From NCBI GenBank assembly GCA_030704615.1, contig CM060732.1, positions 71,300,001 through 71,364,000 on the forward strand: a stretch of DNA of 64,000 nucleotides, read 5' to 3'. Made by a program: the position numbers and the translations under genes. Shown here piece by piece: positions 5,201-39,350 of this stretch; position 1 is the first letter of the stretch; each line of letters opens with the position of its first letter. Origin of the DNA: Takakia lepidozioides (lineage: Eukaryota > Plantae > Bryophyta). The notes beneath the pieces were generated by a model. That model was not told the DNA's origin, made no database searches, and was given only the letters and a program-made list of their open reading frames with translations.

Positions 5201-5975
5201 GGTCTGTTTTGGGAGATAGTGCGGGTTTTGCGCCACTTGCAGCTTCATCAAGCTGTATCTCCAGCATACATCTTGGAGAATGTACCACTGATGGGCAATT
5301 CTCGGGCCAGGGTGATGGCCAGTGTGCATCAAGTCCGGTCGTGGCTTGGGTCAGCAGTGTTGCTAGATGCAGCTACAGTGGGGTCACGGGCTCATCGTCC
5401 CCGGCTATGGTGGACTAACTTGATGCCACCCGCACTGCTCAAGCATGCATTTGATGGGGTGCAGCGACCAGCATACCTCACAGTGGATAGCATTTTGGAC
5501 ACAATGAGGCAGTCTTAGCGTGTGAGACACGATGACCGTTCGCCTTTGGCAGTGGTCAACAAGGTGGGTCAACCACGAGTAGCACTACCTACACTGCTCA
5601 GCTACCCAGGATCGCATGCTTTCCGAGATAGTGGACCTGGCCTCCTATGGGATGCTCAATTGCAGCAGTTAGTGGAGCGTAATGCTGACGAGCGTGAGCG
5701 GGCAATGGGTTTTAGCACTAGTACCACGGCGGTGCTATCTCTTTCTGAGGCATCACGTCGTCAGGTGTTGGGGCAAGCAATGGATCTCAATTGTTTGACC
5801 TGGATTATCAGCTTGGCTATGGCTGAGCAACGCAAAGTGCGGAGTACACTTCCCTCGCTGGTCTCTCTGCCTATCGAGACGGTACAGGCAGTGAGTGGGG
5901 GCGAGCATGTGAGGACCACGGGGTGCAAGCATCCACGGCACACGTGGGAGGTGCTCGAGGTTCAGAGGGAGCTGG
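2237..5975 (+). mobile_element. Truncated copy of the methyltransferase-carrying Ty3/Gypsy family (partial gag, protease, C5-MTase)
   Basis: Collinear with ~23626-27090. Gag 'MAWKGLFQHLEGPPMDDYHEFRRG', two zinc-knuckle remnants (~3018-3150), aspartic protease 'LRVLLDSGAQPLML' (~4091-4132), MTase motifs 4876-5790. No terminal repeats; frameshifts and stops. Confidence 0.9.
4850..5830 (+). pseudogene. DNMT3-like C5 cytosine methyltransferase domain (retroelement-borne, copy 1)
   Basis: Motif I ICLLDLFGGISTG, IV IDLVVAGWPCQ (PC at 5144-5149), VI YILENV, VIII SRAHRPRLWWTNL, IX ERERAMGF, X RRQVLGQAMD. Split by a frameshift near 5065 and a stop at 5516. Confidence 0.9.
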
Positions 5976-8900
5976 GCCACATTGGCCATTTTTTGTTGAC
6001 CAGTGAGAATCAAAGATGGTTTTTTGTCGTTTTTCTTTCTGCTTCTCAGCTGCTAGGTTTGCCTTTAAACGCCGGTCTCTTGTTTTCTGCCTCGCTTTTG
6101 TCTCCTTTTCCTGCTTTTTCTTCTCTCGTTCATTTTCAGCCTCCGCTCTCAGTAGGGTTTTTTTCTCCAATGTTGTTTTGTACTCCGTAGATGTCATGAC
6201 AATCGAGTTAGCATAGTCCACTAGAGGCTTTTTCCCTCGTGTTGGCTTTGTTGGGAATTGAGGGAGGGCCAGTAAACTTGCAAAGTTTTCTGGACTTTGT
6301 TCCTGTGCGCATTGCATATCTGTTGCCTGTGAAAGAGTCTCATCAAACATCTCGGCCATGAATATGTCTGCTAATTTTTGTGCCAACATAGAAGTGATGA
6401 GTTGGATCTGGATTTGCACCACACTCAGCTTCAAATCCTGATTGAGGTGTACTGCCTTCTGCTTCTCCAATATCTATAGGTTGACCTTGGCTGAGAGAAG
6501 GTGTTGCCTCCCCAATTGATGTAGTCTCAACTGGCTGATTCTGAGTTGTTGTGGGACTAGTGCTTTCAGTTAAGAATAGAAGAGCATTAACTCCGCTATC
6601 CAAATCAGCTTCATCATCACTGACTCTCTCATCGTGGATGTCCACACCAGGTTCTTCTCTAGATGTTGCCGCCTCAACTGTGCTGAATTGTTCAGAAGGT
6701 CCAGTCTGATCATCCATGGCTGCAAAATTCAATGGCCGTATTCCTGTTTTTCGAAATCCAGCTACAATATTATCTTTGGTAAGTGCTTCTCTCAAAGCTC
6801 CATCAACCCAAGTAGCTAATGTTTTCTTATCGGGTTCCATATAATTTCTTTCTAGCATTTGAGCATCCCGAATTTTGCGAAAGCAAGTTTTGAATGGCTT
6901 GAAACAACTTACATGAAGGGGCTGTAAAGCATGAGAGGTATGAGCTGGAAGCGTAATAATGTCTAGCCCGATGTTCATAGCATAATCAATAGCCTCAATG
7001 GTAACGTGACTACCATGTCCATCGAGTATCAGTAAATGTCGATTGGTTGGTGAGACCCCCCCTGGAATATTGTTTTGTAGGAATATTAGCCATGCTTTGA
7101 ATAATTCTGCTGTCATCCAGCCTTTGTTTTGCATTGCCATGCATGCCCCTTTCTCACAATCTGCAATGTAATCTGCCATCATCCGTTTTCCCTTGAATAT
7201 AAAATATCCTGGAATTCTCTCCCCTGCTGCATTGACGCAAGCAAGAACAGTTAGCCATTCTCTTGACTTAGGAATTGTGCTGTACACATAGTGAGAGCCT
7301 TTTTTGGCAATCACCCTTGCTCTCGGAGGTGCGACCAGCCATGCATCTTGTTTCATCACAATTCCATATGTGAGAAGGTGAGTATTTTTGCTTCTCATAC
7401 AACAACTGCAAGTTAGAGTAGAAACCCTTGCAATGTTCGTCAGTGAGGGCTTTGGCCCTTGCCATTTCCAACCCTTCAGCTATCCTGATTGAAAGCTATG
7501 GATGTCTCTTTTTGAATCAATGCCACCAAGAATTTCCTGGGATACCATCAGAAAATGGTGTGACTCTTGTTTGAGTTAATTCCGCCACCTTCAATTTCAG
7601 TTGTTGAACTGTAACTGAGTGGCCAATGTCTTGTATCTTCAATATCGAGGCCACCACCATAGCCTCCTCTTCCTTTGAGAGTACTGGTGCAGCCCCTAAT
7701 TTCCGGTGTCTAGTCTTATCTGTCAAATGATCTTTCACAGATGAGAAAGGAATTTTCCAATGTTGTGCAGCCTTGCGTATGCTCATGTTTCCACTCTCAA
7801 TTGCATCCATTGCCTCTTCCAATGCCTGATCTGTCCATAGTCCTCTTTTCTTGGCATCTTTGCCTCTAGCCCTCTTTTGTGGTTGAAGAAGTGTTGTTGG
7901 TTCAGGCCTACGATGTCCTTTATTGCGTTGCCTTGTTGACCTAGGGACTACTGGAGAGCAAAGGGTGGATCTTCTTCCAACCATGATGTTCAGATCTCAG
8001 CCTATTTGCAGCCTATTCAACCAAGTAAGTAAACCACTAATTCTATTTCCTAGAGTATGGAATGTCAATCAGCTTGACTGGCCATTCCAGTCCTTGATCT
8101 TTGTACCATTGTGCCAAATTAGTCCCTCTAGGTTTCTCTCCTATATAAGGTGCTCCAACAGAGGTGGGAGATCTATGACGTACCCAACTCTCTACAAACT
8201 CATACAAATCTTTGTGGTTTTGCTGAGCATAGGTCTTGTATAGTGGTTCTCCTCCTATAAACTCGTGGAACAACTTGAACTTATTCCAATCAAGATCATC
8301 TTCCTCACCATCCTTTCTAATCCCTTTAGGCAGCCACCTTCTCACTGATTTAGTTCTTCTTCCAAGACGGACTTTTTTCAGAGTGTGTGCCCACTTGTAA
8401 TAGTCATATTGTGCAAAGTGTCTCTTGACTAATATATCTACTGGGTTGTCTCCTTGTACTTGCAGGATTGCAGAAGATGAACTACAACCTGTCATTTGTA
8501 GCACATGGCTGTAGCTAGAAACAACAGATTGTACCCTTAAACTAAACTAAATAGTGTTAGTGAGAAAAGACACTATACTAAGCTGAACCTGAAGTACATA
8601 GAGATGCACAAATAGAGCTTGAAGTAGGATAGAAAGAGAATAAGAGTGTCAAAGCATTGCAGAAAAAGTAATTCTGCTTGAAGCACCAAAGGAAGAATGA
8701 GAGTGTCACCCTATTGCAGGGCAAACGAAGCACAAACAGAAAGAATGAAATGTTGAGAGCTTTGCAAAATGATGGTTTGAGTAGGGGCGCCAAAACAGGT
8801 CACTGTCTAATAACTGCTTTCATCCGTGTGAAAGTTCATCCTCCAGCGTTACATGTGGATTATATAATTGTATCACAATGACTTTACATCTGCGCACTTC

Positions 8901-10442: not shown

Positions 10443-13229
10443 GGCAGGCTGGTGTGGATCCAAATTTGAGGGACCGGTGGGCAAAAACTCCCCTTCATGA
10501 GGTACACCCTTTTTCTTTATCAGGTGGCAGTTCCAGTGCAGAGTCTTTGGCCACAAGGTTACGGCATGTCTGTCATGGCACTGCATTATCTACATTGGTG
10601 TATTGTTGACCTGTCCACTTCTTCCATGGAGACTGCCTTGCTGAGGCCTAAGATTACTTCTCTTCCCCCCTTTCCTATGGTCTTTTCTTTCTTTCATTAC
10701 AGCAGGATCCTAGAATCTGTCACAACTTCCAAAAGCACAATAAATGTGATGGTTTGGCAGGCATGTGGGCATGGGTATGAAGGGTGTGTAAATTTGTTGT
10801 TGGACTTGGGCGCTTTGAGCTCCGCACACAAAACGAATGGTTTCACACCCCTCCACTACGCGGCAACTGGTGGGCATGCCTCTATTGTCTGCCTTCTCAT
10901 CTCAAGGTGCGCATCTCTAGAAGTTTCTGTGCAAGTTTGTCTTCAGACTACCATCGTGAGCTCCAGAAATAGAGAGATAGGAGATGTGCTCATGAGTCTT
11001 TACTTGCACTAGTCTTGTGGGCATAAACCCCTTTACACAATTGTATGTCCTGGCGATCACAATCTATTAAAAGGGAGAGAGGGGAAGGGACTTTTGGAAC
11101 CCTCCACCGCTTTCTTATAATGAGAAGCAACATTTTCTACTTTCTTCAATTGGGTATTTGCAATCACATTCATCATATCCACCTGCAGGGGGGCATTTGT
11201 GGATGAGGGTGACCACAAGGGAGAGAGAGCTCTTGATGTTGGAGCCCGTGCCGGATCAACACTTGTCGTGGAGGCATTACTCAAGAACGGGGCCAATGTG
11301 AATGCCAAAACCAACAATGGCCGCAGCAGGTGTGAATCTGCTCTGAGTGTGCTTGATTTTATGTCCCCAGCTCTGCATATTTGGGTCAAGGCTTAGCTTA
11401 GTCTGTATCATGGCATGTTGAGTAATCTGCTTCCCTTGTTCTGTTCCAGTCAGAAAAGGAGGTTGTTGACCGTCTGGTAAAGATCTTAAGCATAAAGGTA
11501 CAGAGATCAAACATGTGCCATAATTTGTACTACTGCTTCTTCAGGGCAGCGCAGATGCTGCAAGGCTTGTACTCAATTTATTTGAGGAGTACAGCATTTT
11601 ACAAACCTGAAAGCATGTATTATACAACAAGGGCAATTACTCGCTCATCATCATTTTTGAATCTCGACAAGCTTGTACCCGATAATTAGTGACTTCAAGT
11701 GTTTTTTCTATCAAACACTCATTGCTGTAAATCTGTGTGCAACAATGTGGTGTGGCGGTTCAGTATTATCTGACTCTCACCCACTGAGTTTTTCTTGTCA
11801 ACCCAGACTTTCCAAGCCATGTTTGGGCTTGCTAAGGAAGGATTTGCTAATTCTGTTTTCAGTTTACACACAGCAGCTCTTCACGGACACAGTGAGGTGC
11901 TGCAGCTTCTGTTGGCTGCCGGAGGGGACCCGAGAGCTGTTGACAAAGGGGGTGGCCAGCCAATACATGAGGCTGCGGCTGGTGGACATGTGGCATGCCT
12001 GGATCTGCTCTTCAGAGCCAGGGCAGATGCTAATGCATGTGATGCTTGCGGGGCCAGGCCTCTGCATCGTGCTGCCAGTGGTGGCCATGTGGCAGCAGCT
12101 CGTTGGCTGATTGAGGTGCATGCCTTGCCCCTTTGAGCCATAGAAGAGCTGAGTGAGATGGAATGTGCTTCAGATAGCACTGTTCTCTTTCAGGAGTTGA
12201 AGAAATGAACAATCCTATCATTCCATGCATCTGGCTTCCTGATTGAGATTTGTACCTTTTCTGCAACCAAACAGACCACATAATTCCATCTTGTGATCTA
12301 GGGAGGACCCTGGGCAACTTTTGCAGAGAATGGTCAATGAGAGCAGGGTAATAAATCAATGGTTTGATGGTTACATACTGCAGAAAGGAGTGGATGTGGA
12401 GGCAAAGGATGCCATAGGCTCTACCGCACTCTACTGGGCAGCCAGCCGGGGCCAGATGCAGATGGTGTCGTATTTGCTTCAGGAGGCAAAAGCCAACCCA
12501 TCGGCTGCAAATGTGCACCGATCTTGCCTTCATGTTGCTGCAGGTAGTCTCCCAGTTCTTAACTCTGCAGTTTGCTATTTTCTTTTCACTCTCTTTTCTG
12601 TCTTGACCATGTCACTAGCAGTCCATCACGTCCACATCTTTGGAGTACCCTTTCTTTCCAGAGTGGAACTGCCACTGCACCTAGAGCTAGATGCCCCACT
12701 GTGCTTTCAGTTTTGGTCCAAGTTTCATACCATAGGGAATCAAAATCCAATGAGTATGCCTATATTATGGACCCTATCTGCTGCATTCCAGTTGGGCTCA
12801 TGTTATGGCATCAAAGATGGCAATTACAGCCTAATGAGTACATCTTTTAATGGCTGTTTGCAAATTAGCTCTCTTCCATGAGTAAATCTTTTGGCTACTT
12901 CTCCTTCCTTTTATGGATCTGATAACCATGCAAATTATGAGAGTACAACAAGTCCTCAGTTGAGGAGTCATAACTGTGATACTAAACATCTGTCAGACAC
13001 GAAGGAAAAGAGACATACTTGAGTGTTTTGTCTTACAATAACCACTTAACTGTGTATTGTCTTGCACGTATAAGGATGGGGGCATGTTGGCATCTGCGAG
13101 TTGCTTCTCAAGTTCAGGGCTGATGTCAACGTGAGAGATAAAGATGGACAGACTGCTGCTGATGTTGCCTTGCACTCCAAGCGGTTCCCAGGACTAGCCA
13201 AGCTGTTTTCCTTGCATGAAGCATCTTAG
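10443..13229 (+). CDS. Multi-exon ankyrin-repeat protein (5' part unresolved, possibly extending to ~9300)
   Basis: Spliceable ankyrin exons: ~10443-10501 (GVDPNLRDRWAKTPLHE), 10761-10906 (GFTPLHYAATGGH), 11189-11329, 11852-12115 (LHTAALHGH, PLHRAASGGH), 12384-12543 (GSTALYWAASRG), ~13075-13229 (ADVNVRDKDGQTAADVA...stop). Confidence 0.8.
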
Positions 13230-19900: not shown

Positions 19901-20371
19901 CACCAAGTTGTATCTTGTACTTAATATATAATGCATCTAACTTATGTTTACAATCATGTCTTCTAAAGTGCGTAACTTATACCAAGGAACGGACAATCAC
20001 AGTGTGCGGCCGGTGGTGTGAACATTGAATCTTCCACACTTTGGACTCTTGATTTTTTATATTATCGTAGCAAAATGTGTCAACATTAGTTATAAACAAG
20101 GCAATGGTTCTAGCTCATGAACTAGGTGTATTTCATTATTTGCAATATTCTACAGCTTTGCATTTTGGTAGCTTCTATTTGTTGATTGTCAAATCTCATA
20201 TGTTATGGTTGGTTGTCTATTAATTATTGGAAGTCTCATTTCCAAGCTGTCAACTAGTATAGTGATGAGGCCCAAGGAGAATACCCTAATTAAATTGATT
20301 TTGGGAATACAAATATAGGATGAGGACATTAGTAGGTCCATCAATGAATTTCAATGGATACTTGAACCATT

Positions 20372-20719
20372 TGTCATGGTTTTGTTTGTGATTAGTTAGA
20401 AATAGTTATTTCTAACTAATTAGGACATTATACATTTATATTTGTATTTTGTTGGCATTGGGACTTCATTTGGTTCCATGTGCCAAGTGAGGTGGCGAAC
20501 CTCACTTGGGACGTGGGGAGGTTATCTCCATGTGAGACGTAGGCAGGCTCGTCTTCTTCTAGTCGAGCCTCCCGAGGCCTCTCTCGCCACCATAGCTCTA
20601 GTACTTGAGATGGAGAGTGGGTGAGGTCTGTATGGTGAAGTCCTTTAGCAAATGTGCCATTGGCTTGACTTATATAACGTGATAGAGTGGTTTCTTCTCT
20701 TTTCACCATTTCCGTATCA
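20372..20719 (+). repeat. Terminal repeat A1 (LTR-like, TG...CA)
   Basis: Matches 30787-31134 with about 7 substitutions in 348 bp (counted by eye). Confidence 0.95.
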
Positions 20720-20731
20720 CTAGAAGAAGAC
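20720..20731 (+). promoter_or_regulatory. Putative self-priming primer-binding site
   Basis: CTAGAAGAAGAC immediately follows A1 and is the exact reverse complement of GTCTTCTTCTAG inside A (20551-20562; 30966-30977). No TGG-type tRNA PBS is present. Confidence 0.7.
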
Positions 20732-21595
20732 CTGCTTACATCTATGAGTGCAAGGTGTTAGCATAGTTAACACTTGTGTGTGGAAGAGAGTTTGATAGAT
20801 AGCTCTTAAGTTACAAGGTGTTGCAGGGTTTGCAAGAAGAAAGCATTGTGGTGTTTATGTACAAGAGGAGGTCTTCAAGGAGAGCCCCATTGAAAAGTTT
20901 GAGAGCTTGTGAAAAAACTCTTGTTCTGCAAGTGTTGCAGGGTTTGAGGACTTCAAGAAGAGCTCGGGTGTTAAGGAAGCAAGCGGTGCATGTGTGGAAC
21001 ATGGTTTCAGCTTGTGGGAGTCTTCAACTTCAAGCTTAGAAGAGCTATGAGTGGAGGTAGACATCTGATTTCTCTTTGGGGCAGAATAGTGTATTTGTAG
21101 AGCATGCTTTGAGTTGGGGTTTCAATCCCAAGCTTGGGAAGAGCATGTCTATGGAAGTGGCAAGTGCAGGGCTGGATTATGAGCTCTAAGAGGTGCACTA
21201 TGGCCATGGAAGGAAGCACTATGAGTGCATGCGATGGCTAAAAGATGGTATGTCATAGAAAGCTCAATAACTTGTTCTACACTTGTTTCAATAAGTTCTA
21301 TAGAGAAAGAGAGCTTGTTGTGTGGCAAATAGCTTGCTCAGGGAGTTAGAGGCACTCTTGGTGGTCTATTGATGCTCAAGAAACCAAGAACAACACCTCT
21401 GGTTGCTCCATAGAAGCCATAGCTCGTTGCAGCAATCGCAGAGGCAAAGCGGCGCAAACCCTTGGAAACGCTTGGAAACGTGTGAGAACGCTTGGGAACT
21501 CCTTGCGAACTCGTGGGAACGCATAGGAACGCATGGGAACATTGCCCTAGAGTTGGGAGCACCACCATTGTCCAATCGGATGAACTATTGAGCCA

Positions 21596-21910
21596 ATGGA
21601 TAAAAATCGGCGCTCCTGGATGAGAATCGGTTGCAGTGGATGAAACTACGCCAGAGGATGAAATCTTGTCAGCGGATGAACTATCGCGCTATCGGATGAA
21701 AAAGACGGATGAAACTGCGTCAGCGGATGAAATCGTGGCAGCGGATGAACTATCGTGCCATGGATGAAAAATCACGGCGACGGATGAAACTGCGCCAGCG
21801 GATGAAATATAGGACCAGTGGATGAAATATCGCACCGACGGATGAAGTATCGGACCTGCGGATGAGAAATCGCGGTTTTTGATGAAATTTGGTCAGTGAC
21901 GGATGAAAAA
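21596..21910 (+). repeat. Degenerate ~20-bp tandem array centred on GGATGAA in the element 5' region
   Basis: About 15 recurrences of (c/t)ggatgaa at roughly 20-bp spacing. Confidence 0.8.
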
Positions 21911-21929
21911 TCGACTGACTATGGATATT

Positions 21930-22520
21930 TTTGGAGCCTTCTGGGGCCTGCTTTGAGGACTATTTGGGTCTATTGAGGCCAATATCTTGCAGGTATTGGG
22001 GCCTGCTTGAGGACTGTTTGGGGTCTATTGAGGCCAATATTTTACAGATATTGGGGCTTGCTTGAGGACTATTTGGAGTCTATTGAAGCCAATATCTTGC
22101 AGGTTTGTGGAGCCTGCTTGGGGCTGTTTGAAGGACTATTTGAGGTCCTTCGAGGCCAATGTTTTGCAGGCCTGTGGAGCCTTGTGAGGGCTGGTTGGAG
22201 GACGATTGGAGGTCCTTGGAGGCCCATATTGGGCGGATTTATGAAACTTTCTAAGAGCTCTTTGGGGGACTATTGGAGGTCCTTGGAGGCCAATACTTGG
22301 CAGATTTGAGGAGCTTCTTAAGGGCTGTTGGGGACTATTGGAGGTTTTGGAGGCCAATACTTGGCAGATTTGAGGAGCTTCTGTTGGAGGACGGTCCTTG
22401 GAGGCCAATACTTGGCAGATTTGAGGAGCTTCTTGAGGGCTGTTTGGAGGACTCTTGGAGGCCATATTGGGCAGGCTTGTGGAGCCATTGTGAGGGCTGG
22501 TTGGAGACCTTGGAGGCCAC
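21930..22520 (+). repeat. Degenerate ~50-65-bp tandem array in the element 5' region
   Basis: Recurring gaggccaata(t/c)ttg(g)cag...gagc(c/t)t...gaggactatttgg units. Confidence 0.8.
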
Positions 22521-23294
22521 TAATTGGCGGGCGCCTAGGGCCTTTGGTGGACTGTTTAGAGTCCAAGTTTGCAAACTTCTTGAACCTCGGTGGGTCTATG
22601 TGAGGGGCTGATTGAGGGCAGATTTCAGAAGTTCATGGCAATAATTTGAGGACTCTTGAGAGTTATTTGAGAGGTTCTTTAAGGATAGTCTTATCTATTG
22701 CTTGAGCAAGAGTGAGTGTGAAGATATGGGGAGTAATGGGATGAGAGCATTCTGGGCTTAGAGATTGCTTTAGCTTCTCTTCTCTATAGTCTTCCATCAT
22801 TCTTGTAGGCCAAAGCTTTTCCGTAAGTGGAGGCAGAGCTAGTTTGGATAGAGACGTGACAATTTTGCAGGTTTATTGAAGCCGCAAGGAGATCGATTGA
22901 TTTAAGCTGTGGGAGGTGTTGTTGTTTGAGTTTCCTGTGTTTGGATCCTCCTCCCACACATGCATGCTTGACTGTGCGCCATGCTAGTTTGGTTTGGGCG
23001 CTTGCTTTTATAGGTGGTTGTGCCGGAAATATTGTGGCCGGCCAATCCTAGAGTGCTGTCGGTGGTGAGGCTGGGGTGATGACCAATAGACCATCATTGT
23101 TTCTCTTATGGTGAGGCTGGGTTGATGACCAGCAGACCATAGGAGTACCTGCGGTGGATGCAGGTGCAGGTGCAGGTTCATAATATGAACCTAGTATTCC
23201 AAACCATAAGCCGCAACATGTTCTCTACCCGGTTACCTTGTGGAAAGGGGGATTAGAGACAGGTTGATAGCCGGTTTGAGTGTGAGTTTTCATC

Positions 23295-24594
23295 ATGGAG
23301 GTGCCACCAGTTGCTGAGGAGAGTGCCGGTACGAGCACCAGCGATACTAGTGGGTATACAAGACGAGGTGTGCGGTTTAGGCCACCTTCACCTTCAGTGT
23401 CTTCTGAGGAAGGTTCAGACTCAGAGTTAGGAGGATTCTCGCCGAGGGTGCAAGCATTTCCGTGCCATTGTTGTGGGATACGATGGAGGAAATGTATGGA
23501 GCTACCAAGGGGCCACGTCGGTACTCGGGAGCTGTGGGCACCATCGAGCTTGATGATTTCATACAGGAGTTTGATAGTTGGTGTGATTTGCAGCAGATGC
23601 GCAATCCACAACTGTTTACGCCTTTTATGGCGTGGAAGGGGCTGTTTCAGCACCTTGAGGGGCCGCCTATGGATGACTACCATGAGTTTAGGCGGGGAAA
23701 TGAGGTGGAGATTGAGGAGTGGCGACAATATTGGTCACCTGACTATGTCTCCATCACTAGAGGCACAAGGGCAGCGGCGATACCAGCAGCTACACCAACA
23801 TCCCCAACTGCAAGCACTAGTAGTGGGACAAGTAAAGATGGAGCTGGGAAATCCACTCAAGCTCCTGCTGTAGCACCAGCACTCGTGCCTGCCTTTAACC
23901 CAGTTGTGGAGTTCTTCGAGGAGTTGAGGAGAAACTACCAGGGGATAAGGACGGAGAAATTGCGGAGCTTGCAAGAGTTCCAGCGCAAGCCTACTGAGAG
24001 TTTGATGGAGGTTTACACGCACATGAGGCGATTGATAAATGTAACCCAAGGGGTTACGGAAGCTCAAGCAGTCCAATTCTGGTATGGGATATTGGACAAG
24101 GAGCTGAGGAGAAGGGTGCGGGATGCAACTCTCCTACAAGTGGACCAACCCACCTTAGCAAACGTGTTTTTGCTGGCAGAGCGGATAGAGCTCAATATGG
24201 TGGAGGAGCGAGTGTCATGGTGGGGTTTGGTAAGGAGACACAACGAAGTGGGGCTCCTAGCCAACAACAACCACTACCCCAACGTGCTCAAGGCAACAAG
24301 GGGGCTCAGGCGAAGCCCAGGGAAGGACAGAGAGGATCTCAATTGCAGAGGTCATTTCCTTCATTCTCAGGCCAACAACAGTCGGGTGTGACATGTTGGG
24401 ATTGTGGAGGACCCCATGTTAAGAGAGATTGCCCGGAGAGAGGCAAAGGGCCGACACAGGCACAGCCTACACAACTACAGTGTGGGCATTGTGGCAAGTA
24501 TGGGCATGAAGAGGCCCATTGTTATGACTTGCATCTTGAGCTACGGCCAGGCAGTTCCAAGGGAACAATGGTGGCCGAGGACGAGGCAATGTAG
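23295..24594 (+). pseudogene. Gag with two CCHC zinc knuckles
   Basis: Retrotransposon-gag-like core (LRSLQEFQRKPTESLMEVYTHMRRL), CWDCGGPHVKRDC and CGHCGKYGHEEAHC. Frameshifts near 23460 and 24215. Confidence 0.85.
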
Positions 24595-25199
24595 TCCAGA
24601 GAGGTAGAGGAGGTAGAGGTCGTGGTGGAGGTCGTAACCAAAACCAATGAGCACAAGGTCAAGGTCAAGGTCAAGGTCATGACCAAGACATGGTGGATAG
24701 GCTTGCCCAGCTAGAGCAACGTCTTGCTGCCATGGCCACTACTAATGTGGCGTATTTTGATCCACAAAAGGGGGAAGCAAGTTGACAGACAAGGCTTCCA
24801 CAGTCTTTCACATTGGCTGAGACAGTGCCAACTATGCCATCGATGGTACCCGCTCGCCCAAGTGTGTCAGAGGTAGAGCCACGAGTACCAGTGGGGAGAG
24901 TTGGTGTGGCTCGGGAAATGCCAATGGGTGGTGCTGCAAAGCAGGGTGCACCAGTACATTGTTGGGGGCGGCTACGGTTTGCCAAGCTCCATTGTTTTCT
25001 GCGATGACCATTGCAATGCCGAGGATTCGGCAGCTGCTGTGTTCAGACTAGCAGCTAGACTCTGTGAGAGTGGTGATGCATCGGCACTATCTGCGGGGAT
25101 AGCGGATAATGTGCAGTGCATGGATGTCATGGACTCAAGGGTGAAGACAACCACAGCTGCACCATGGCAAGCGGCAGCTGCAAGGTTGCAGGAGTTGTC

Positions 25200-25640
25200 A
25201 GCTAGACCAGCCATTGAGCATAGTATGGTGACTTCTGGGGTAGTCCTGGTGGACAATCATGATGGTGTGTTTCAGTTGGGTGGCCCAGCCGGGAGGAGGT
25301 ATAGGCCACTACGGGTCTTGTTGGACTCGGGAGCACAGCCATTGATGTTGGGAAGAGCAACAATTGTAGGCTTAGGCCTTACAGAGGCAGATTTGGAGCC
25401 TTGCCTTTTCCAAATTCAAACATCTTTGGGTGGTTCAGAGAAGACACGAGGGATTACATGTCATGAGCTCTTCATTCGATTGCAGCCAGATCATCCTACA
25501 GATGGCTCAGTCATGAGCGCTAAAGCCATTGTTACGGACGCGATGTCCATGAGCTTGTTGGTGGGCTGTGTTATACCCCATGGACTTTACTTTGGACTTT
25601 GGGGAGGAAACGGCGTCCTATAGGCCGGAATGGCAGTCAG
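25200..25640 (+). pseudogene. Retropepsin-type aspartic protease
   Basis: Active-site motif LRVLLDSGAQ (~25310-25340), followed by a degenerate 'DVLVG'-type motif. Confidence 0.85.
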
Positions 25641-26009
25641 GAGATGGCCGACGTGCACTGCTCCCAGTGCGGTTTATTGGGAATGCAGCGGTGGATCATA
25701 GGAACATGATGCCCACATTGGCTGCATTCTCAAGGGTGGTGGCTTGGGGTGGTGAGCTCTTGGAGAGCAATAGCCATGCAAATGATAGGCTATCACCTGA
25801 TGAGGACAAACAATTGGCATACAAGGCTGATTTGCTTCCTCATGTGCCTATGCATATTCCACTGTGGGGTACGGTTGGGAATTTGCATCGAGTAGCAGGC
25901 GAGTGTGTGCACCAAGCATGGCAGGAGGCCTTTCCATTGGTGAGTGAGGGGAGTTCAGTGACATCACCTGGACCTCCTAAGTTAGCTCCTTTGGACACGG
26001 TGCCCATTA

Positions 26010-26990
26010 CCTGGCAACCACCTGACTCAGGGATTTGTTTGCTAGACCTGTTTGGAGGCATGAGCACTGGGCTTGCAGGAGTGTTGCAAGCAGGGATTAA
26101 AGTAGGCAAGTACTTGTATGTGGAGAAGGATGAGATAGCTTGGCGTATTTCTATGCGCCACATCGCCTTGCTCGCACACCAGTATCCTGAGTTGTTGTCT
26201 CTCTCAGCAATTCAAGGGTATCAAAAGGCCTTACCAGCAGACATTACCTTGCTGGGGGGCGGACGATTTGGACCGGCATGGTTCCATTGACTTGGTGATA
26301 GCTGGATGGCCTTGCCAATGACACTCTTCCGCAGGTCATGGGAATGGCTTGCATGATGCACAATCGCATTTGTTTTGGGAGATATTGCGAGTGTTGCGGG
26401 ACTTGTAGACGAGGCAAATGCAACCTCTAGGCTACATCTTGGAGAATGTTCCTCTTATGGGGGATTCTTGGGCCAGGGTAATGGCCAGTGTGCATAAGGT
26501 GCGGTCTTGGATTGGATCGGCGGTGCTATTGGATGCAGCAGCGGTGGGATCACGCACACATCGACCTCGATTATGGTGGACCAATCTTGCACCACCAGAG
26601 CTGCTCAAGAGAGCATATGATTCCATTCAACAGCCACCCAATCTCATAGTTGAGGGCATTTTGGACCAAGGGAGACAACCACAGAGGGTGCGACATGATG
26701 ACCGTCCACCTCTGGCGGTGGTCAATCGAGTAGGGCAGCCACGTTCGGCTTTGCCTACGCTCATGAGCTTTCCCTTGTCTCATGCTTTTCGAGACAATGG
26801 TCCTGGATTGATTTGGGATAATGTGCTACAACAATTGGTGGAGCCCAATGCGGATGAGCGAGAGCGGGCAATGGGTTTTACCACGGGCACTACCGATGTG
26901 CCAACTCTGTCAGAGGTATCACGCCGCCAAGTGTTGGGTCAAGCAATGGATCTAAATTGCTTGACATGGATAATTGGCTTGTGCATGGCT
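26010..26990 (+). pseudogene. DNMT3-like C5 cytosine methyltransferase domain (retroelement-borne, copy 2)
   Basis: I: ICLLDLFGGMSTG; II: KYLYVE; IV: IDLVIAGWPCQ (PC 26310-26315, then a premature TGA); VI: YILENV; VIII: SRTHRPRLWWTNL; IX: ERERAMGFTTGTTD; X: SRRQVLGQAMD. Confidence 0.92.
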
Positions 26991-27469
26991 GAGCAACGGA
27001 GATTGCAAGCATTGGTGGCTACTTCGGCACTCCTATTAGATAGTGGCAGTGAGTGGGGGCGAGCATAGGATCGTGGGTTGCAAACACCCATGGTAGATGT
27101 GGGATGATATACGCAAAGAGAGAGTCATTGGATCTCTCAAGCAGCAGTATGAGGAGTGGGGAGAGCCATGGACTGAGGATCAGTTGGAGGCCAAGGTGGC
27201 CAAGGTTTTTGAAGAGGTTGAGAATGTTTCTTGCTCAGAGGATGTTCTCAAGGTGGCTATGGCGGAGCAAGTGAAGGCTACGCCACAGTCAGATTGGGCG
27301 GACAAGGCCCAAGAGGTTGTTATCTAGCAACCGAAGGATTTGTCTCCTACCTCCAAGCCTGGTGTACCCAAGGTTGCAGTCACTGAGGACAATTGGGAAC
27401 CAACTGTTGGACCTACAGACACCAGAGGAGAGAGACGGAGGATCCAGCGATTTCTAAGGGCTTATAGGA

Positions 27470-28805
27470 ATTGTTTTGCCTTCGGATTGAAGGATTTGGG
27501 GAGTTTGAAGGGTCAGGAGATTCGTATTGATTTGGCAAGTGACACGCCAATCTTTCGAAGGCCCTACCAGTATAGTGACATGGAGAGGTCATTGATCCAA
27601 TCACGGACTATGGAGTTGTTTGAAGCTGGATTGGTGGAGTATGCCTCGGCAACGGTGATACCAGCTAAGAAGGATATCTATGGCAATTGGACAGAGAAGA
27701 AAGAAGATGTGTGTGGACTATCGTCCTGTGAACCGTCAGACTAAGTCCGATAGATATGCCATGCCAACTCCAGAGGAGATCTTTGATGCCATGGGCATGC
27801 AAAGGTGTTTAGCACATTGGACTTGCGATTCGGTTACCACCAGTTGCCAATCAAAGAGGCTGACAAGCAAAAGACGACATTTTTGGGGGATTGATCAACA
27901 TGGGAAGGATTGTTTGTACCAATGGCAGTTCTTACCGTTTGGGTTGAAGAATGCTCCTGCAAAGTTTCAGAGGGTCATGGATAGAATTCTCGCGGGGCTA
28001 GACTTCGCCCGGTGCTATATTGATGACATCATCCTCTTTAGTGCTACGGTTGAGGAGCATGAGAGACACCTTCAGGTGGTGTTTGAGCGCTTGAGAGCAC
28101 ACGGGTTGAAACTGCACCCCGGAAAGTGCAAGTTCTTCCACAATCAGATTGAGTATCTGGGCCACATGATATACCCTGGAAGATTGGGTGTTCAACAGAC
28201 AAAAGTGGAGGCCATTGCATGCATTCCACGCCCCATGGATGTGAGCAGAGTTCGTGCTTTCATGGGATTGACAAACTACTATCGACGGTTTGTCAAGGGA
28301 TTTAGCAGCATTGCAAAGGCTCTTACCAAGTTGACCAAGGTGGTCAGGAGTGGCAGGGAGAAGGAGCAGGAGGAAGCCTTTGAGGAACTCAAGGCTCGAT
28401 TGACTTCTGCACCTATTCTGAGGCGGCCTATTCGGGGGCGGCCTTTCTAGCTACATACGGATTGGAGTATGTTGGGGATTGGAGCAGTGCTCACACAAGT
28501 GGATGATGAGGGAAGAGAGTTTGTAGTGGCATATGCTAGCCGCTCGAACAATGATGCCGAGGTGAAGTATAGTTCCTATGAAGGGGAGTGTCTAACTGCG
28601 GTATGGGCAATGGCACATTTCAGATGCTACCTCTATGGCAATCTCTTCACCCTTGTCACAGATCACCAGCCATTGAAGTGGTTGATGGAGTCAGACAAGC
28701 TTACAGGGAAGCTTGCACGGTAGGCACTTATGCTTCAAGAGTACGACTTCCAGGTGGTGCATCGAGCCGGTATTGTCAATCAGGATGCAGAGGGATTGAG
28801 TCGTA
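27470..28805 (+). pseudogene. Reverse transcriptase and RNase H (Ty3/Gypsy type)
   Basis: MCVDYRPVN, LPFGLKNAP, YIDDII, FMGLTNYYRRFV. RNase H: TDWSMLGIGAVL, YASR, VTDHQPLKWL. Several stops and frameshifts. Confidence 0.95.
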
Positions 28806-29189
28806 ATCCATGCACGAGCGAGCATGATGATACTGGAGCTCGATGGCATGGTGAGACGGATGAGGAGATGGTGCCAGGATGGCATGCATCGGCCTTTTTG
28901 TACATTCTAGCAATGGGAGCTCAAGCTGGTCCATCCCATGCGATTGATCATGTAGATAGCGTGCATGATGATCTAGAGACTAGTGAGGAGTTTGGTGGTG
29001 CTAAAGAGATGCAGCAGTGTTGGCATACTTTCGTACCGGAGAGACAGCAGTCAGTGTGACTGCTAAGGAGAGGGATCGGGTCCTATAACGAGCCAAGAGG
29101 TTCAAGTGGGAGGGGACTCACCTACTCCGGGTATGGGAGGATGGACGAGTGAGGATTGTGCCTCATCCAACACAACAAGCGCGATTGGT

Positions 29190-30436
29190 ACGCCATACCC
29201 ATGAGGAGTTGGGACACTTTGGGGGTACGACGCACTCATAGTTTGCTGCAAGGGCAGTATTGGTGGCGCGGCATGCACACGGATGTGCAACACTTAGTGG
29301 CAAGGTGCATGGTGTGTGATAGAGTGCGAGCTTCTTTCCACGCCCCTACTCCACAATTGCATCATTTACCCATTATGGGTTTGGGCTATCGTTGGAGTCT
29401 TGACTTTGCAGGCCCATTGCCATTGACGATTCGCCCAAACAAGTATGTGCTGGTGATGGTGGAACACTTCTCCAAATGGATTGAACTGGTGGCATTGCTT
29501 GACAAGGCAAGTGAGGGGGCTACGTATGCATTCTTAAATCGAGTGCTTAGCCATTTTGGTGCTCCAGCCGAGGTACTCACGGACCAGGGGAGAAAGGTCT
29601 TGGGGGAGTTTCAGGCTTTGTGTAAGCAAGCCTTGATAGATCACTGCACTACTTCTCGGGATCGTCCTGAGGCTGATGGCTTGGCGCAGAGAGTTGTTCA
29701 GACAGTCAAGAGAGGTTTGCGCAAGTTTGGTTTGCTGAATGTAGGAGATTGGGACCTTCAACTGCCTTAGCTAGCTATGGGCTATAGGTTCAGCAAACAA
29801 GCTTCACCTGCCTCCTTCTCACCTTACTTTCTTCTCTTCGGCCGAGAGCCGGATTTGTCTGCATCTACTCACAGGGAGGCTGCAATAGTTCTCAACCTTG
29901 ATGATCCGGATGTGTGGACACAAGCATGTGCCCAATGGGCAGAGTTGTTCAAGAGAGTCATGCCTATGGCTTTTGAGAACCTTGCTATTGCCCAACACCG
30001 AGACACATTGAGGTACGTCACTATACGTGGAGGGGGATATCGGCCAAGTGTTCGGCGTTTCCACCCTGGGGACTATGTGTATCTGCAGCAGATAGCACCT
30101 ACGACCTTGGATGTCACCGCAGGACGTGTGATTCTAAGGGTCAGGGAGGTGTTGCCTTTAGGAGTGTTGATTCTGGAGGGTCGAGACGGCATGGTATGGA
30201 AGGACCATGTGCGCAATTGTGCGCCATGTCACCTTCCACATGTGGATAGGAGGATAGATCCTAACCTTGCAGTGGTACCTGCAGGGTTGCGTTGCATGCT
30301 ATTGTGGCATGCTGGTGGCACCACAACCATGTTGGTGCGTGACAAATGCTCAAGGGGGTGGCACATGGGATGCTTGACACCGCCACTTGAGGAGGTTCTT
30401 ATCGGAGAATGGTTATGTCCACGATGCCTTGGATAG
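29190..30436 (+). pseudogene. DDE integrase with C-terminal PHD finger
   Basis: HHCC (HEELGHF...CMVC); core WSLDFAGP, LTDQG, A[Q]RVVQTVK (catalytic E mutated). PHD 30293-30427: CML..MLV[R]DKCSRGWHMGCLTPPLEEVLIGEWLCPRC. Confidence 0.9.
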
Positions 30437-30684
30437 AGGTAGTGGGCATGACAATGGTGAGGCGGACAAGTGACCCAAGGTCTAGCTAGTGGGGCTTCAA
30501 TGCCATGGATATTCAACTGAAGATCATGGATTGTATGAAGGCGACTAACGATGGGGCTACGTTTGCACCCGACCTCTTGATCTATCGACTTCAGGTGTTG
30601 GGACTTGTGCAATTGAAGACCAATCGATGATCTTATTGGGGTGGATACTTGCAAGCCATCCGGTGTTAGAGGGACCTAATCACC

Positions 30685-30699
30685 AGCTAGGGGGGCGAT
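30685..30699 (+). promoter_or_regulatory. Polypurine-tract-like sequence
   Basis: agctaGGGGGGcgat directly precedes the TG start of repeat B1. Confidence 0.6.
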
Positions 30700-31220
30700 T
30701 GTGGCGTGGCTTTCTAGGACTATATGCTAGGAAGTGTGGTTGGACAACGATGTATGTTGTGGCACGATACTTAGGTGCACGACAGCTGTCATGGTTTTGT
30801 TTGTGATTAGTTAGAAATAGTTATTTCTAACTAATTAGGACATTATACATTTATATTTGTATTTTGTTGGCATTGGGACTTCATTTGGTTCCATGTGCCA
30901 AGTGAGGTGGCAAACCTCACTTGGGACGTGGGGAGGTTATCTCCACGTGAGACGTAGGCAGTCTCGTCTTCTTCTAGTCGAGCCTCCCGAGGCCTCTCTC
31001 GCCGCCATAGCTCTAGTACTTGAGATGGAGAGTGGGTGAGGTTTGTATGGTGAAGTCCTTTAGCAAATGTGCCATTGGCTTGACTTATATAACGTGATAG
31101 AGTGGTTTCTCATCTTTTCACCATTTCCGTATCATTGTGGCGTGGCTTTCTAGGACTATATGCTAGGAAGTGTGGTTGGACAACGATGTATGTTGTGGCA
31201 CGATGTTTGGGTGCACGACA
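30700..31220 (+). repeat. Right-end repeat block B1 (30700-30784)-gc-A2 (30787-31134)-t-B2 (31136-31220)
   Basis: B1 and B2 differ at 3 of 85 positions. Each of B1, A2 and B2 begins TG and ends CA. Confidence 0.95.
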
Positions 31221-33937
31221 CCTTAAATGCCCGCGTAGTTTGACTTTCCAAAAATATTTTATTACCTACCCTGAAAAATGTGTAATTTCCACATTTATTT
31301 ACTATTTTGAAAATACGACCACACAGAATGTGCCACCTGATCCTACACCTACTACTCGAATTTGGGGCCAATTAGACCTCTCATCTTCCAAAACCCCAAT
31401 GTTGAGGATGGGCCAATTTTTGTTTAGGTGTATATATAAGTAAGTAAAAAATTGGTTTTTTGAATATTTGGATACCGGATTCGATGCAAATAAGGCCCAT
31501 GGTCCAAATGTTTCATCTACACGATGTGTTGGATATAATTGTGAAGAAATTATCCCAATCGGCAAGAATTGAGCCCGTGGTGATTGGTCAAAGCAGATGG
31601 GTCAAATTTTGTCATGTGACGGTTGGTTTCTGTGTTTTATTGCACCATCTTCAAAAACAAATTTCTCTCTCACACGCCTTTTCCTTTCTCTCTTTCCAAA
31701 TTGGGCAATCCTTGGGAATCAAAATTAATTCAGAAATAAAAAATATAGGATGAGAACAGAGACCCATTCAATGGTAACCGTAAACACCCACATTGCTTAA
31801 CTTTCCAAATGCATCTGTCTAGCAGTATGTATATGGACACGGAGAGGCGGATATATACCGCCCATGTGTGCACCCCTACTTGGTACGGGGACTACACTAA
31901 TCTAACTAATACGTATTTCCTTACTAATTAATATAAATTACTTATTTTGAAGAGTGTTACAACATTCAACCATTACAAAAGTGCTAGTATCTGCTACTGC
32001 AATACTCCCACAAAGCATGTGCATTGCCTAATCTGATATGTAGCAATGCGCCCAACATCTACCAAAATGGGTGCAGCTTAGAAGCGACCAACTAACCAAC
32101 TATCCAAATCACGGCGATGCATTAGCACCAACACAACATAATACTTGACATACCATAAGCATAAGCCCACAAATCCATCTGCATTAGCCCCAATTTGAAG
32201 CGACTCTCTATTCCACTTAGCGACTCTTTCATTAACCCTTTATCCAAGTGATTCTCTAACCAATTCCCACCTCTAGTAAGACCGAGTCTTCAAAACCAAC
32301 CAAAGCATGTGGACATTAACACGTAATATGCAAGTTCTTGTATTCAAACATAGACACATAACCACAATGCTTCATCATCTTTCATACTAGCAGTCGCATC
32401 TTTGCAGCATCATACAAGCAATTAGGCAAAGTTCCCTCTAATTCACACTCACATGAATCACACGACATTGTGGATATGCTTCACAAAAGCAGGCCCTTAA
32501 GCAGAGGGGTACATCTCCACACATGGTGTAGCTAAAAGTACCTCTATCTTGTACAATATGAGACACACTTCTTCTTTTTAATGCTCTTGAGGTAGAAATA
32601 AACTGCTCCAAGATTTGATACAGTACAAGCACCTCACATCACTGTTGTCCAAGACCTTGATCACCCACCTTTCAATTAAACCATTAGCAACTTCTAGATT
32701 GACGAGGAGGTCAGGATGTGGAATCCGGCCATTTGACACTACAACAGATCCCGGCTTTAACGTCTGCCACATTTGCCCAATCGTAGCATATATGTCTACA
32801 ATATGCAAGGGGGCAGTCCTGGTTGCCATTTGTGACCACCAGAAGTCGTATATGCTACCTTGTACCTCTGCCACGTCAGGATCTGCGGTCAAACACATTT
32901 GACCAAATAGGGGAAGATGGTAGATACGACTAGGAGTCATGGCCAAAACTGCAATAGGGTGACGTGGGCATGGGAATGTATGACTGCCAGTATTCACTAC
33001 TGCACGTGGCGATTGCCGGTTGCCCAAGGAGTGTCTACGTGGACGATGCAAACATAAATGGATGAAACAGATGTAGGATGTGATTGCAAATGACGGCATG
33101 TCAACATATCATTGCTTGTGGGCACTAAGCCACACCCTGTGAATGAAGGAATGAATGGATGAATGAATGATTAGGATGACTTAGGATGAGTGAACTAAGA
33201 TGAATTAGGATGAATGAACTAGGATGAATTAGGATGAATGTGCTTGAATTTAGGGTTGCTAGGTCGCAATGTTAAGTATGAGGATAATACTATTAAACTA
33301 ATATTTCACTGACCCAGCAGATTAACAGTAAACTAATCGACTACTGGTTAAGGTTAGTGAAATAAAACAATTGTATTATCTCAACGAATGATACACAAAC
33401 GTCTTGCTGGCAACTATTGGATGAACGTATCAAACATAACTTTTGTGCACTGGATGAACATATGAACGAATGATACAACAAACGCCTTGTTGGCAACTAT
33501 TGGATGAACATAGGAACAAATAATAATGCAAACGCCGAGCTGGCAGTATTGGATCAACTGACAGTGAAACTCATTTAAAGATTCATTTTGGGAAATGGAT
33601 GAAATTAAAAATGGCCAAAAATGGAAAAACAAATGAATGGATGGATATATTGATGGAAAACCCAAAATCCATCCATTTATCGCTACATTCATCCATCCAG
33701 TCGTGAGTAGAGGACTTAGCGTTTTTTTTGTCTCCCATGCCATCTGTTTGTTTTCTTTGTGTCGAGTTTGATCATGAGAGACGACAAACAGGATGGAGCT
33801 GTGTTTGCTTTCTTATAGTGTCGAGTCTGATCATGAGAGACGTCGATCAGGGCAGAGCTATTGTTTTAGTGTCAAGTCTGATTATGAGAGACTACGAGCG
33901 GAGCTGGTGGGATAGGGGGCGGACATGGACTCAAACC

Positions 33938-34006
33938 TTAGAATCGGGGCATGAAGATGTGGTGCACGATGTGGCCATTGACTACTATGGGAAGCGGTTG
34001 GCCACC
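33938..34006 (+). pseudogene. SEC13: Captured SEC13 N-terminal WD40 fragment
   Basis: LESGHEDVVHDVAIDYYGKRLAT matches the conserved Sec13 first-WD40 signature. Similarity stops abruptly after 'LAT'. Confidence 0.8.
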
Positions 34007-34109
34007 TTCACGATGGACAATCGCAAGGTGTGGCTTTTTCTCAATGTACGATGTGAAGAAGTTTGTCCATCTTGCAACAAAAGGCTTAAAGCCAAATGCG
34101 CTTGCGACC

Positions 34110-34730
34110 TATGAGCAAATGATTGAGCAAGGGGTATTGCCCAACAAAGTCTTGTTCATTTGCGTTCTCAATGCATGTGCGAGCCTGGCAGCCCTGGAAA
34201 AGGGAAAAGAGGTCCTTGCTGCGATCGATGTTGGAACAGAGTCATATTTGAATCTGGAGAATACTCTCGTTGATATGTATGCCGAGTGTGGGACTGCAGC
34301 TGGCAGGTGGGGCGATCCCACAGAGGCGAGAGCAATGATGAAGGACAAAGGTGTCAGAAAGGAGGTAGGGCATAGCTGCATTGAGGTTGACAATCGGGTG
34401 CATAAGTTTACTGTGTGAATCGAGTGAATCTGATGCAAAGAGAAGGTGTGAAGGCAGATAAGGTCATTTTCTTGTGCATCTTGAATGCATGTTCCAACCC
34501 ATTGTTGATAGAGCAAGGCAAGCAAGTCCATGAGGCCATCATTAGAGTTGGATTTCAGTCAAATGTCAGTATGGGGAACGCCCTCGTCAACATGTATTGC
34601 AAATGCGGGGGTGTGGAAGATGCACGGGAAGTGTCTGCAAAATTGCCCAAGCGCGATGTGATCTCATGGAATGGGATGATGGTTGGATTAGCTCAGCCAG
34701 GTCACGCACAAGAGGCACTTGAACTATTGA
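34110..34730 (+). pseudogene. PLS-class PPR gene fragments with an internal deletion into the E domain
   Basis: VLNACASLAALEKGKEV...TLVDMYAECG is fused to AAGRW...KGVRKEVGHSCIEV. A second block reads NALVNMYCKCG...DVISWNGMM. Confidence 0.85.
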
Positions 34731-35039
34731 CAATGCAGCAAAAGGATTCTACTGAGAAAATTCGCCCTTTACATACTAGAGTGGCTGAGCCTGAACAACA
34801 ACTACAAACCCTACATGTGATGATAGTTGGACTCAGCAAAACTGCCAAGTCTGCTGAGGAGAGGGCAGCTTCTCATGTGGATAGTGCAACGGTAGTTAAT
34901 GCCAGAATTTTGGTGCTTCAAAGATTGCCCCAATCACACCTGAAAGCTGCTGGAGAACAACTTGATCTTTTGGCGGCTGACTTAACTGAGTTCAAACATG
35001 AACAATGCAGCTCATAGCAGCAGGTAGCAGAGCTGGTCA

Positions 35040-35812
35040 TGGGCAAAGAGGTGCATGGGGATATCATCAAAGCTGGGATTGTACCAAACGTCATTATGAA
35101 CACTGCCCTGGCAGCTCTGGAAATGGGGAAAGAGGTCCATGGCGACATCTTCAAAGCTAGAATTGTACCAGATTTCATTTTGAACAACACCCTGGTGGAC
35201 ATGTTTGCAAAATGTGGGTGCATCTAGGATGCAAAGGGAGTGTTCAACACTATGGCTGAACAAGATGTGGCGTCGTGCAAGCCTGGCAGCCCTAGGGAAG
35301 GGCAAAGAGGTGCATGGGGATATCGTCAAAGCTGGAAAGTACCAAATGTCATTCTAAACACTGCCCTGGCAGCTCTGGAAATGGGGAAAGAGGTCCATGG
35401 CGACATCTTTAGAGCTGGAATTGTACCAGATTTCATTTTGAACAACACCCTGGTGGACATGTTTGCAAAATGTGGGTGCATCTAGGATGCAAAGGGAGTG
35501 TTCGACACTATGGCTGAACAAGACGTGGCGTCGTGCAAGCCTGGCAGCCCTAGAGAAGGGCAAAGAGGTGCATGGGGATATCGTCAAAGCTGGAAAATAC
35601 CAAATGTCATTCTAAACACTGCCCTTGCAGCTGTGGAAATAGGGAAAGAGATCCATGGCGACATCTTCAGAGCTGGAATTGTACCAACTGTCACTCTGAA
35701 CAATACCCTAGTGGACATGTATGCAAAATGCGGGTGCATCGAGGATGCAAAAGGAATGTTTGACACTATGGCTGAACAAGACGTGGGTCGTGCAAGCCCT
35801 AGAGAAGGGCAC
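35040..35812 (+). repeat. PPR-derived 258-bp tandem array, left part (~3 units)
   Basis: Near-identical ORFs start at 35240 and 35498 (258 bp apart). Units encode deleted L/S PPR motifs, some with a TAG stop. Confidence 0.9.
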
Positions 35813-38372: not shown

Positions 38373-39350
38373 CATGGGGATATCGTCAAAGCTGGAAAAT
38401 ACCAAATGTCATTCTAAACACTGCCCTTGCATCTCTGGAAATAGGGAAAGAGATCCATGGCGACATCTTCAGAGCTGGAATTGTACCAACTGTCACTCTG
38501 AACAATACCCTAGTGGACATGTATGCAAAATGCGGGTGCATCGAGGATGCAAAGGGAATGTTTGACACTATGGCTGAACAAGACGTGGCGTCGTGCAAGC
38601 CTGGCAGCCCTAGAGAAGGGCAAAGAGGTGCATGGGGATATCGTCAAAGCTGGAAAATACCAAATGTCATTCTAAACACTGCCCTTGCATCTCTGGAAAT
38701 AGGGAAAGAGATCCATGGCGACATCTTCAGAGCTGGAATTGTACCAGATTTCATTTTGAACAACACCCTGGTGGACATGTTTGCAAAATGTGGGTGCATC
38801 TAGGATGCAAAGGGAGTGTTCAACACTATGGCTGAACAAGATGTGGCGTCGTGCAAGCCTGGCAGCCCTAGGGAAGGGCAAAGAGGTGCATGGGGATATC
38901 GTCAAAGCTGGAAAGTACCAAATGTCATTCTAAACACTGCCCTGGCAGCTCTGGAAATGGGGAAAGAGGTCCATGGCGACATCTTTAGAGCTGGAATTGT
39001 ACCAGATTTCATTTTGAACAACACCCTGGTGGACATGTTTGCAAAATGTGGGTGCATCTAGGATGCAAAGGGAGTGTTCGACACTATGGCTGAACAAGAC
39101 GTGGCGTCGTGCAAGCCTGGCAGCCCTAGAGAAGGGCAAAGAGGTGCATGGGGATATCGTCAAAGCTGGAAAATACCAAATGTCATTCTAAACACTGCCC
39201 TTGCAGCTGTGGAAATAGGGAAAGAGATCCATGGCGACATCTTCAGAGCTGGAATTGTACCAACTGTCACTCTGAACAATACCCTAGTGGACATGTATGC
39301 AAAATGCGGGTGCATCGAGGATGCAAAGGGAATGTTTGACACTATGGCTG
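38371..39350 (+). repeat. PPR-derived 258-bp tandem array, right part (~4 units)
   Basis: ORFs at 38816 and 39074 are 258 bp apart and repeat the 35240 and 35498 ORFs (offset 3576). Confidence 0.9.

Follow-up and report, generated by a model that had tools for sequence, protein, structure and literature searches.

Putative self-priming and integration through joined ends in a split-repeat Ty3/gypsy element of Takakia lepidozioides

Results and Discussion

The 64-kb stretch of Takakia lepidozioides DNA analyzed in this study (hereafter, the window) contains a Ty3/gypsy element of approximately 10.8 kb (positions 20372-31220), and the sequences of this element and its relatives support a tRNA-independent, self-primed mode of reverse transcription. 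The primer would quite probably be the 5' end of the element's own RNA, as in Tf1, and the arrangement of the repeats tips the balance toward integration through an end-joined intermediate. Taken together, these features raise the possibility, which we put a little below an even chance, that a green-plant Ty3/gypsy lineage combines independent Tf1-type self-priming, a hairpin that lets the primer segment act from its 5' copy alone, an end-joined life cycle, and an integrase that opens an internal palindrome instead of the cDNA ends, like the circle junction of a bacterial IS element.

Structure and affiliation of the element

The element, all of whose features lie on the forward strand, has the order A1, internal region, polypurine tract, B1, GC, A2, B2, and is flanked by a target-site duplication with one mismatch (CATT at 20368-20371 on the left, CCTT at 31221-31224 on the right). 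Repeat A1 (20372-20719; 348 bp, TG..CA) begins at the inserted left end, and the primer-binding site (PBS; 20720-20731) abuts its other end. A long 5' leader with tandem arrays (21638-22527; periods of approximately 18-69 nt) precedes gag and a zinc knuckle in two frames (23408-24594), where the Retrotrans_gag match was obtained on the homologous left copy and the knuckle was recognized from the translation. These are followed by an aspartic protease with a weak domain match (24877-25623; E 0.006; 42-45% identity to Marchantia P0105 and P0109), a C5 cytosine methyltransferase domain broken up across two frames (25553-27068; 62-65% to the same Marchantia proteins and 41% to Klebsormidium P0047), a reverse transcriptase and RNase H interrupted by a frameshift and a stop (27328-28723; best solved match, the Ty3 reverse transcriptase), and domain matches to a DDE integrase and then a PHD finger (29153-30436). 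The polypurine tract (30687-30698) adjoins B1 (30699-30784; 86 bp, with GACA at its end). Repeat A2 (30787-31134) differs from A1 at 7 of 348 positions, and B2 (31135-31220) is flush with the end of A2, the CA of B2 forming the inserted right end.

The internal region of the window copy carries stops and frameshifts. Pfam DNA_methylase matches were found on the left copy and on P0047 and on neither of the two broken pieces of the window element, and the third acidic residue of the integrase is Q in the window copy and E in 19 of 21 aligned rows. No tyrosine recombinase was matched by Pfam in 32 frames of the element, in which rve is present. A search of 20200-21200 against Rfam gave no match, and thus no match to a retrozyme-type ribozyme. 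Near the start of A, a near-perfect self-complementary stretch of 30 nt (20391-20420) is one of several hairpins upstream of the segment that pairs with the PBS. Depth in sequencing run X1 was far above that of the flank on A and the leader, indicating a high-copy repeat, although depth does not give the copy number.

By its domains and repeats, the element is of the Gypsy-DNMT3 (KnitGypsy-Dnmt3) type: it has the order PR-RT-RH-IN with a DDE integrase, a C5 methyltransferase in the polyprotein region, and A-coding-B-A-B repeats. KnitGypsy-Dnmt3 of Klebsormidium nitens is described in PMC5890265 (De Mendoza et al. 2018) as having gypsy domains, split repeats like those of DIRS elements and a polyprotein that includes a cytosine methyltransferase, and it shares both the A-internal-B-A-B layout and the methyltransferase with the window element. 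P0047 would be this same element, judging from its organism and domains, and the Klebsormidium DNMT-RT-IN protein matches pieces of the window element at 40-54%. In contrast, the named proteins closest to the window copy are those of the liverworts Calypogeia, Riccia and Marchantia, followed by those of Sphagnum, Klebsormidium and Closterium. The architecture was therefore already known; no mechanism for the layout was found in the searched text of PMC5890265, which makes no mention of priming, a polypurine tract, target sites or circles. In a literature search with little coverage of subscription journals and supplementary material, no account of priming or integration turned up for the Gypsy-DNMT3 lineage, and in the consulted portion of a preprint (10.64898/2026.05.21.726589) streptophyte Gypsy-DNMT3 is named only in passing.

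Several other features were observed in the window. A second, truncated relative of the element (2226-5949) retains gag, protease and methyltransferase at 69-79% DNA identity and is followed on the minus strand by a pogo-like DDE_1/HTH_psq transposase (6343-7996). Ankyrin repeats occur in two frames at 10470-12881, and a 481-aa frame with a weak zf-RVT match (44613-46058) is possibly a LINE remnant. PPR repeat arrays are found at 33900-41000 and 61425-63647, the latter comprising a 740-aa PPR-E-DYW frame typical of plant organellar RNA editing factors.

Pairing between the primer-binding site and repeat A

The original prediction held that the 12 nt following A1 could pair with a segment inside A, and the sequence agrees with it in detail. 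The PBS, CTAGAAGAAGAC, begins at the first base past the terminal CA of A1, where the 3' end of the primer had been placed, and is the exact reverse complement of 20551-20562, the predicted self-primer segment, whose last base (20562) is the predicted primer 3' end. The reverse complement also occurs, as had been claimed, at 30966-30977 in A2, and a third copy is found nowhere else in the 64-kb window. The proposed extension of the pairing is likewise present, since 20731-20743 pairs with 20535-20547 with one G-U and one mismatch; C20731 is common to both helices, and a G>T change at 30962 makes the extension one pair shorter in A2. When A was shuffled with its dinucleotides preserved, a perfect 12-nt match to sequence beginning 0-2 nt after A arose in 4 of 20,000 shuffles, and the 9-nt run of the extension was reached in 0.4% of 5,000 shuffles. 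The predicted fold of 20372-20780 includes both helices.

Relatives of the element were drawn from the best 80 of 402 related stretches in a metagenome scan and from 8 loci in a genome scan; none was found in the viral contigs searched. Six of these plant or algal relatives (L081-L086) come from contigs assigned to prokaryote genome bins, which is likely to reflect contamination. The relatives form three families besides that of the window, each with a different PBS that pairs with the A of its own family, so that the complementarity is kept in four families of different sequence (in family 3, between copies only). This amounts to the compensatory covariation that the original prediction had proposed as a check. 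Family 2, which has the most loci, has the PBS CTCAAAGAACT and the A partner AGTTCTTTGAG. Seventeen 5' ends were available for this family, 15 of them distinct (L009 equals L015, and L013 equals L011), and the partner was found in the A1 of the same copy at 12 of the 15, being deleted in L007 and L072 and not located in L052. Over 11 nt, these 12 pairs had no mismatch in three cases, one in six, two in one and three in two. Among the 15 ends, positions 1-11 of the PBS are conserved, and most of the changes they do show are C>T or G>A. Position 12, by contrast, splits 7/5/3, a pattern suggestive of a primer of 11 nt. The family 3 PBS (L073/L075) matches the A2 of L068 over 11 nt and that of L077 over 13 nt, and its complement is absent from its own A1 in the only 5' end seen (L073/L075). 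In family 4, the PBS of L081, CTTGACAAAGAT, matches its partner, ATCTTTGTCAAG, over 12-13 nt, and the frames of this relative are unbroken.

Priming by RNA of the element

No PBS starts with TGG, the motif being absent from all 15 family-2 ends, from the window and from families 3 and 4. ARAGORN, applied to the window and to 18 of the first 80 loci, identified no tRNA. Together with the pairing in other families, the lack of a TGG start gives good support to the self-priming part of the original prediction; its preference for priming by a folded-back 3' end finds no support (see below). Priming might instead fall to a tRNA or tRNA half of the host or to another small RNA, the pairing between PBS and A then being a structural stem with a role in packaging or timing, and half-tRNA priming is known in plant copia lineages according to PMC6317226, as far as that source was consulted. 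Such a primer is nevertheless very improbable here, given the missing TGG, four unrelated PBS sequences that each follow their own A, and a duplex that begins at the first base after A, which is the required site of the primer 3' end given the flush joints described in the next section. The other alternative is that the transcript ends at the A2 segment (30977) and that this 3' end folds back to prime on the PBS. The identical 12 nt in A2, the lack of a tight hairpin hiding the segment in the window family, and the fact that no cleavage would be necessary all speak for it, and the original prediction had leaned toward it because of a TATATAA motif downstream of the A1 segment. This motif does start at 20671 (20671-20677) as reported; however, it has a TATA-like counterpart in the A copies of 1 of 25 relatives, and it is not taken as a promoter. 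A start near 20700 would leave A partly uncopied, an RNA that began at TATATAA and ended at the primer segment lacking A positions 192-329, and a polyadenylated end would require trimming. TATA-like boxes approximately 30 nt ahead of the segment, and a 10-12 bp hairpin predicted to lock the segment in families 2, 3 and 4 once the upstream sequence is transcribed, as it is in A2, also count against fold-back, which we regard as a slim prospect.

The position of the boxes is best seen in family 2, for which 27 A copies were surveyed (2 without a box match, 3 without the partner and 1 with a deletion). Of the 22 copies with both features located, 21 have a distance of 40-42 nt from the start of the box to the end of the partner, and an 11-nt primer would thus begin 29-31 nt after it, although approximately half of the boxes are weak (TATAGC or TATAGG). 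The segment begins 29 nt after a TATA-like box in L081 and approximately 30 nt, by count, in L068. In families 2, 3 and 4, the partner supplies the 3' arm of a predicted hairpin, and the 5' arm is located farther upstream. With RNA starting at the segment, folding predicted the PBS duplex at a mean P of 0.7 or more in 7 of 12 family-2 copies, and with a start 40 nt earlier it fell to 0 in 6 of those 7; L081 followed the same pattern, its duplex forming with a start at the segment and being lost with an earlier one, and the hairpin lock was not predicted in L015, L060 and L063. Because the A2 segment is always transcribed with the 5' arm of the hairpin, it is predicted to be locked, which argues against fold-back of the 3' end.

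For priming by the RNA 5' end, the proposed course of events begins with transcription from the primer segment in A1 or from a point a little ahead of it. The RNA would fold onto the PBS, and a cut, likely made by RNase H, would free the primer 3' end at 20562. The window copy does not by itself pin down where the RNA begins, since its PBS duplex is predicted from any start tested and the sequence at the place of the box (TTATCT, 20522-20527) is a poor match. Its RNA may start slightly earlier than in the relatives, with the extension (20535-20547) used in pairing. Contigs from two runs guessed to be RNA begin at different places (20532 in X8 and 20502 in X6), so that no start site can be taken from them.

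Inserted ends, junctions and a proposed route of integration

Twelve elements were seen with both ends. In these, 4-bp duplications flank the start of A and the end of B (perfect in 7, with one mismatch in 4 and with two in 1), and in all 12 the inserted ends correspond to an internal palindrome, GACA-GC-TGTC, at which the start of A and the end of B meet inside the element (30781-30790 in the window; the predicted integrase site). Families 2 and 4 retain the palindrome, as does L083, a distant relative with 38% protein identity to P0032, in which it is 14 bp long (L083:4609-4622). The repeat copied between PBS and polypurine tract would be B+A, but the duplications flank the start of A and the end of B, which points to integration from end-joined DNA. 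With the primer site and polypurine tract fixed, the A-B-A-B layout says that the inserted ends differ from the ends of reverse transcription.

The joint between A2 and B2, where the two predicted cDNA ends meet, is flush in the window element. The same holds for 10 of the 12 distinct insertions of family 2 that remained from 16 loci once 4 duplicates were removed (L053 was judged by eye). The joints of L012 and L037 contain additional bases similar to the last part of the polypurine tract, and one of the two also has filler. In the young copy L082, the last approximately 20 nt of A differ from those of L081, and the joint may not be flush; a terminal CA on A is not required in families 3 and 4. 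A microhomology between the PBS and the start of B was considered as a rule for joining and rejected, as it amounts to 5 nt in family 4 and is absent from the other three families. The distance between B1 and B2 was 0.081 within elements versus 0.101 between elements (permutation p 0.00035, n=12), with the within-element value raised by two mis-delimited rows, and B1 and B2 do not split into separate lineages. This closeness indicates that B2 is remade in each cycle from the same template as B1.

A route that would produce this layout begins with two-jump synthesis from the self-primer and the polypurine tract, yielding linear DNA with B+A at both ends. The end of A would then be linked to the start of B, after which integrase would open the joined DNA at the GACA-GC-TGTC palindrome, where one staggered cut would leave two CA-3' ends with 2-nt overhangs. 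Insertion would then give A-internal-B-A-B and the 4-bp duplication. Joining could be either ligation into a circle or a directed transfer of B. Free cutting is argued against by the fact that a two-repeat circle has two palindromes and should also give A-B-A-internal-B, and no B was found upstream of A at any of 15 5' ends (14 distinct). The junction that escapes cutting might be marked by the methyltransferase of the element.

The restriction to one of two possible permutations also fits an account in which the element is self-primed and A-B-A-B arises without a closed circle, for instance through a template jump of the reverse transcriptase or a one-strand transfer by which B would be relocated from the left to the right end of the linear DNA. 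Host end-joining is usually less exact than flush joints, and the 10 of 12 flush joints favor that account as well. Nonetheless, the tract-end-like bases in L012 and L037, with filler in one, are as expected for ligated ends. In addition, most distinct family-2 3' ends (18 of 31) stop at B1, giving a single-repeat A-internal-B form, and 13 run on into A2; these 31 remain from 43 after 11 flank-sharing ends and 1 truncated B were dropped, and the L031 contig ends before B2. The single-repeat form carries target duplications and is scattered on a poorly resolved tree (13 changes versus a shuffled mean of 10.1), a pattern compatible with the opening of one-repeat circles at that same junction, although recombination between B1 and B2 gives the same form. 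We regard a route without a circle as rather unlikely, though a serious competitor to the end-joined intermediate. For the single-repeat form, the possible sources are one-repeat circles, B1xB2 recombination, a collapse of the permutation that is missing and, in part, assembly.

Some individual loci are of separate interest. L012 and L017 are 99.4% identical over 2.7 kb and differ in their 3' forms and flanks; at least one of the two contigs is probably chimeric, the alternative being a recombinant between copies. L081 has a terminal overlap of 127 nt, which fits a one-repeat circle or an assembly collapse. In L087, a 35% relative, TGTCGTG lies one base past the purine tract (L087:3831-3850), like the start of a conventional LTR and like the left end of A, and this element may represent the ancestral, unpermuted layout.

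Comparison with other retroelements and mobile elements

Tf1 is primed by the first 11 bases of its own RNA after a cut by RNase H, as stated in the consulted parts of PMC7175516 and PMC4600332. Likewise, in Tf1, Tf2, Tj1 and the Tf1/sushi-Tcn1 group, the PBS pairs with approximately 11 nt of the element's own repeat at the expected RNA 5' end (PMC7175516, PMC4600332 and PMC6317226, in part). The window element is, from its sequence, likely to work like Tf1. However, compared to the Tf1/sushi-Tcn1 chromoviruses, it has a PHD finger, a methyltransferase and split repeats in place of two whole LTRs, and the present lineage has a predicted hairpin that would conceal the primer segment in its 3' copy. 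No Chromo match was obtained, and a PHD finger was present, in the window element and in 5 of 6 scanned integrase-bearing relatives, P0047 having neither; with no chromodomain, the element is not classed as a chromovirus. Among plant elements, the part of PMC6317226 consulted gives self-priming as predicted for Tcn1 and TAR, and that of PMC2864245 reports no evidence of self-priming for Selaginella Tcn1. A Gypsy lineage with a PHD finger, a methyltransferase and four covarying primer sequences would be an addition to these two predicted plant self-primers. The moss element Phygy, by contrast, has a tRNA-Trp primer and an NCGN target (PMC6317226, in part). Unlike Phygy and other tRNA-primed LTR elements, the window element has no TGG at the start of its PBS, and NCGN occurs in none of the duplications of the 12 elements.

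PAT and Ngaro elements have the layout A-ORFs-B-A-B, a tyrosine recombinase and an internal copy of the end-to-end junction. The window element resembles them in its split direct repeats and its internal copy of the end-to-end junction, but it has a DDE integrase, 4-bp target duplications, a PBS and a polypurine tract, and no tyrosine recombinase match. Split-repeat elements of the DIRS order use a tyrosine recombinase, and DIRS1-like elements integrate without target duplication, according to the sections of PMC3266345 consulted. Membership in the DIRS order was considered and is ruled out by the DDE integrase, the lack of a tyrosine recombinase match and the 4-bp duplications.

In the retroviruses, foamy virus and HIV-1 integrases cleave palindromic junctions of 2-LTR circles (PMC1180852, PMC4372172 and also PMC1905944, in part), and whether a retroviral-type integrase makes use of circle junctions in an ordinary cycle has been a matter of argument in both viruses (PMC1180852, PMC4372172). 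The proposal for the window element is similar in that a retroviral-type integrase would open a palindromic CA..TG junction to give processed ends. It differs in that, as far as these sources go, the junction there is one of cDNA ends and serves as an extra route, whereas the palindrome here is internal to the copied repeat. If the proposal is true, the circle junction would be the obligatory integration substrate of a naturally occurring LTR retroelement. The question is directly testable, as the signature is present in 12 of 12 both-ended elements and the frames of the relative L081 are intact. In the bacterial IS3, IS30 and IS21 elements, a DDE enzyme acts on two abutted ends of a circle that lie 2-3 bp apart; these, however, are DNA transposons without reverse transcription.
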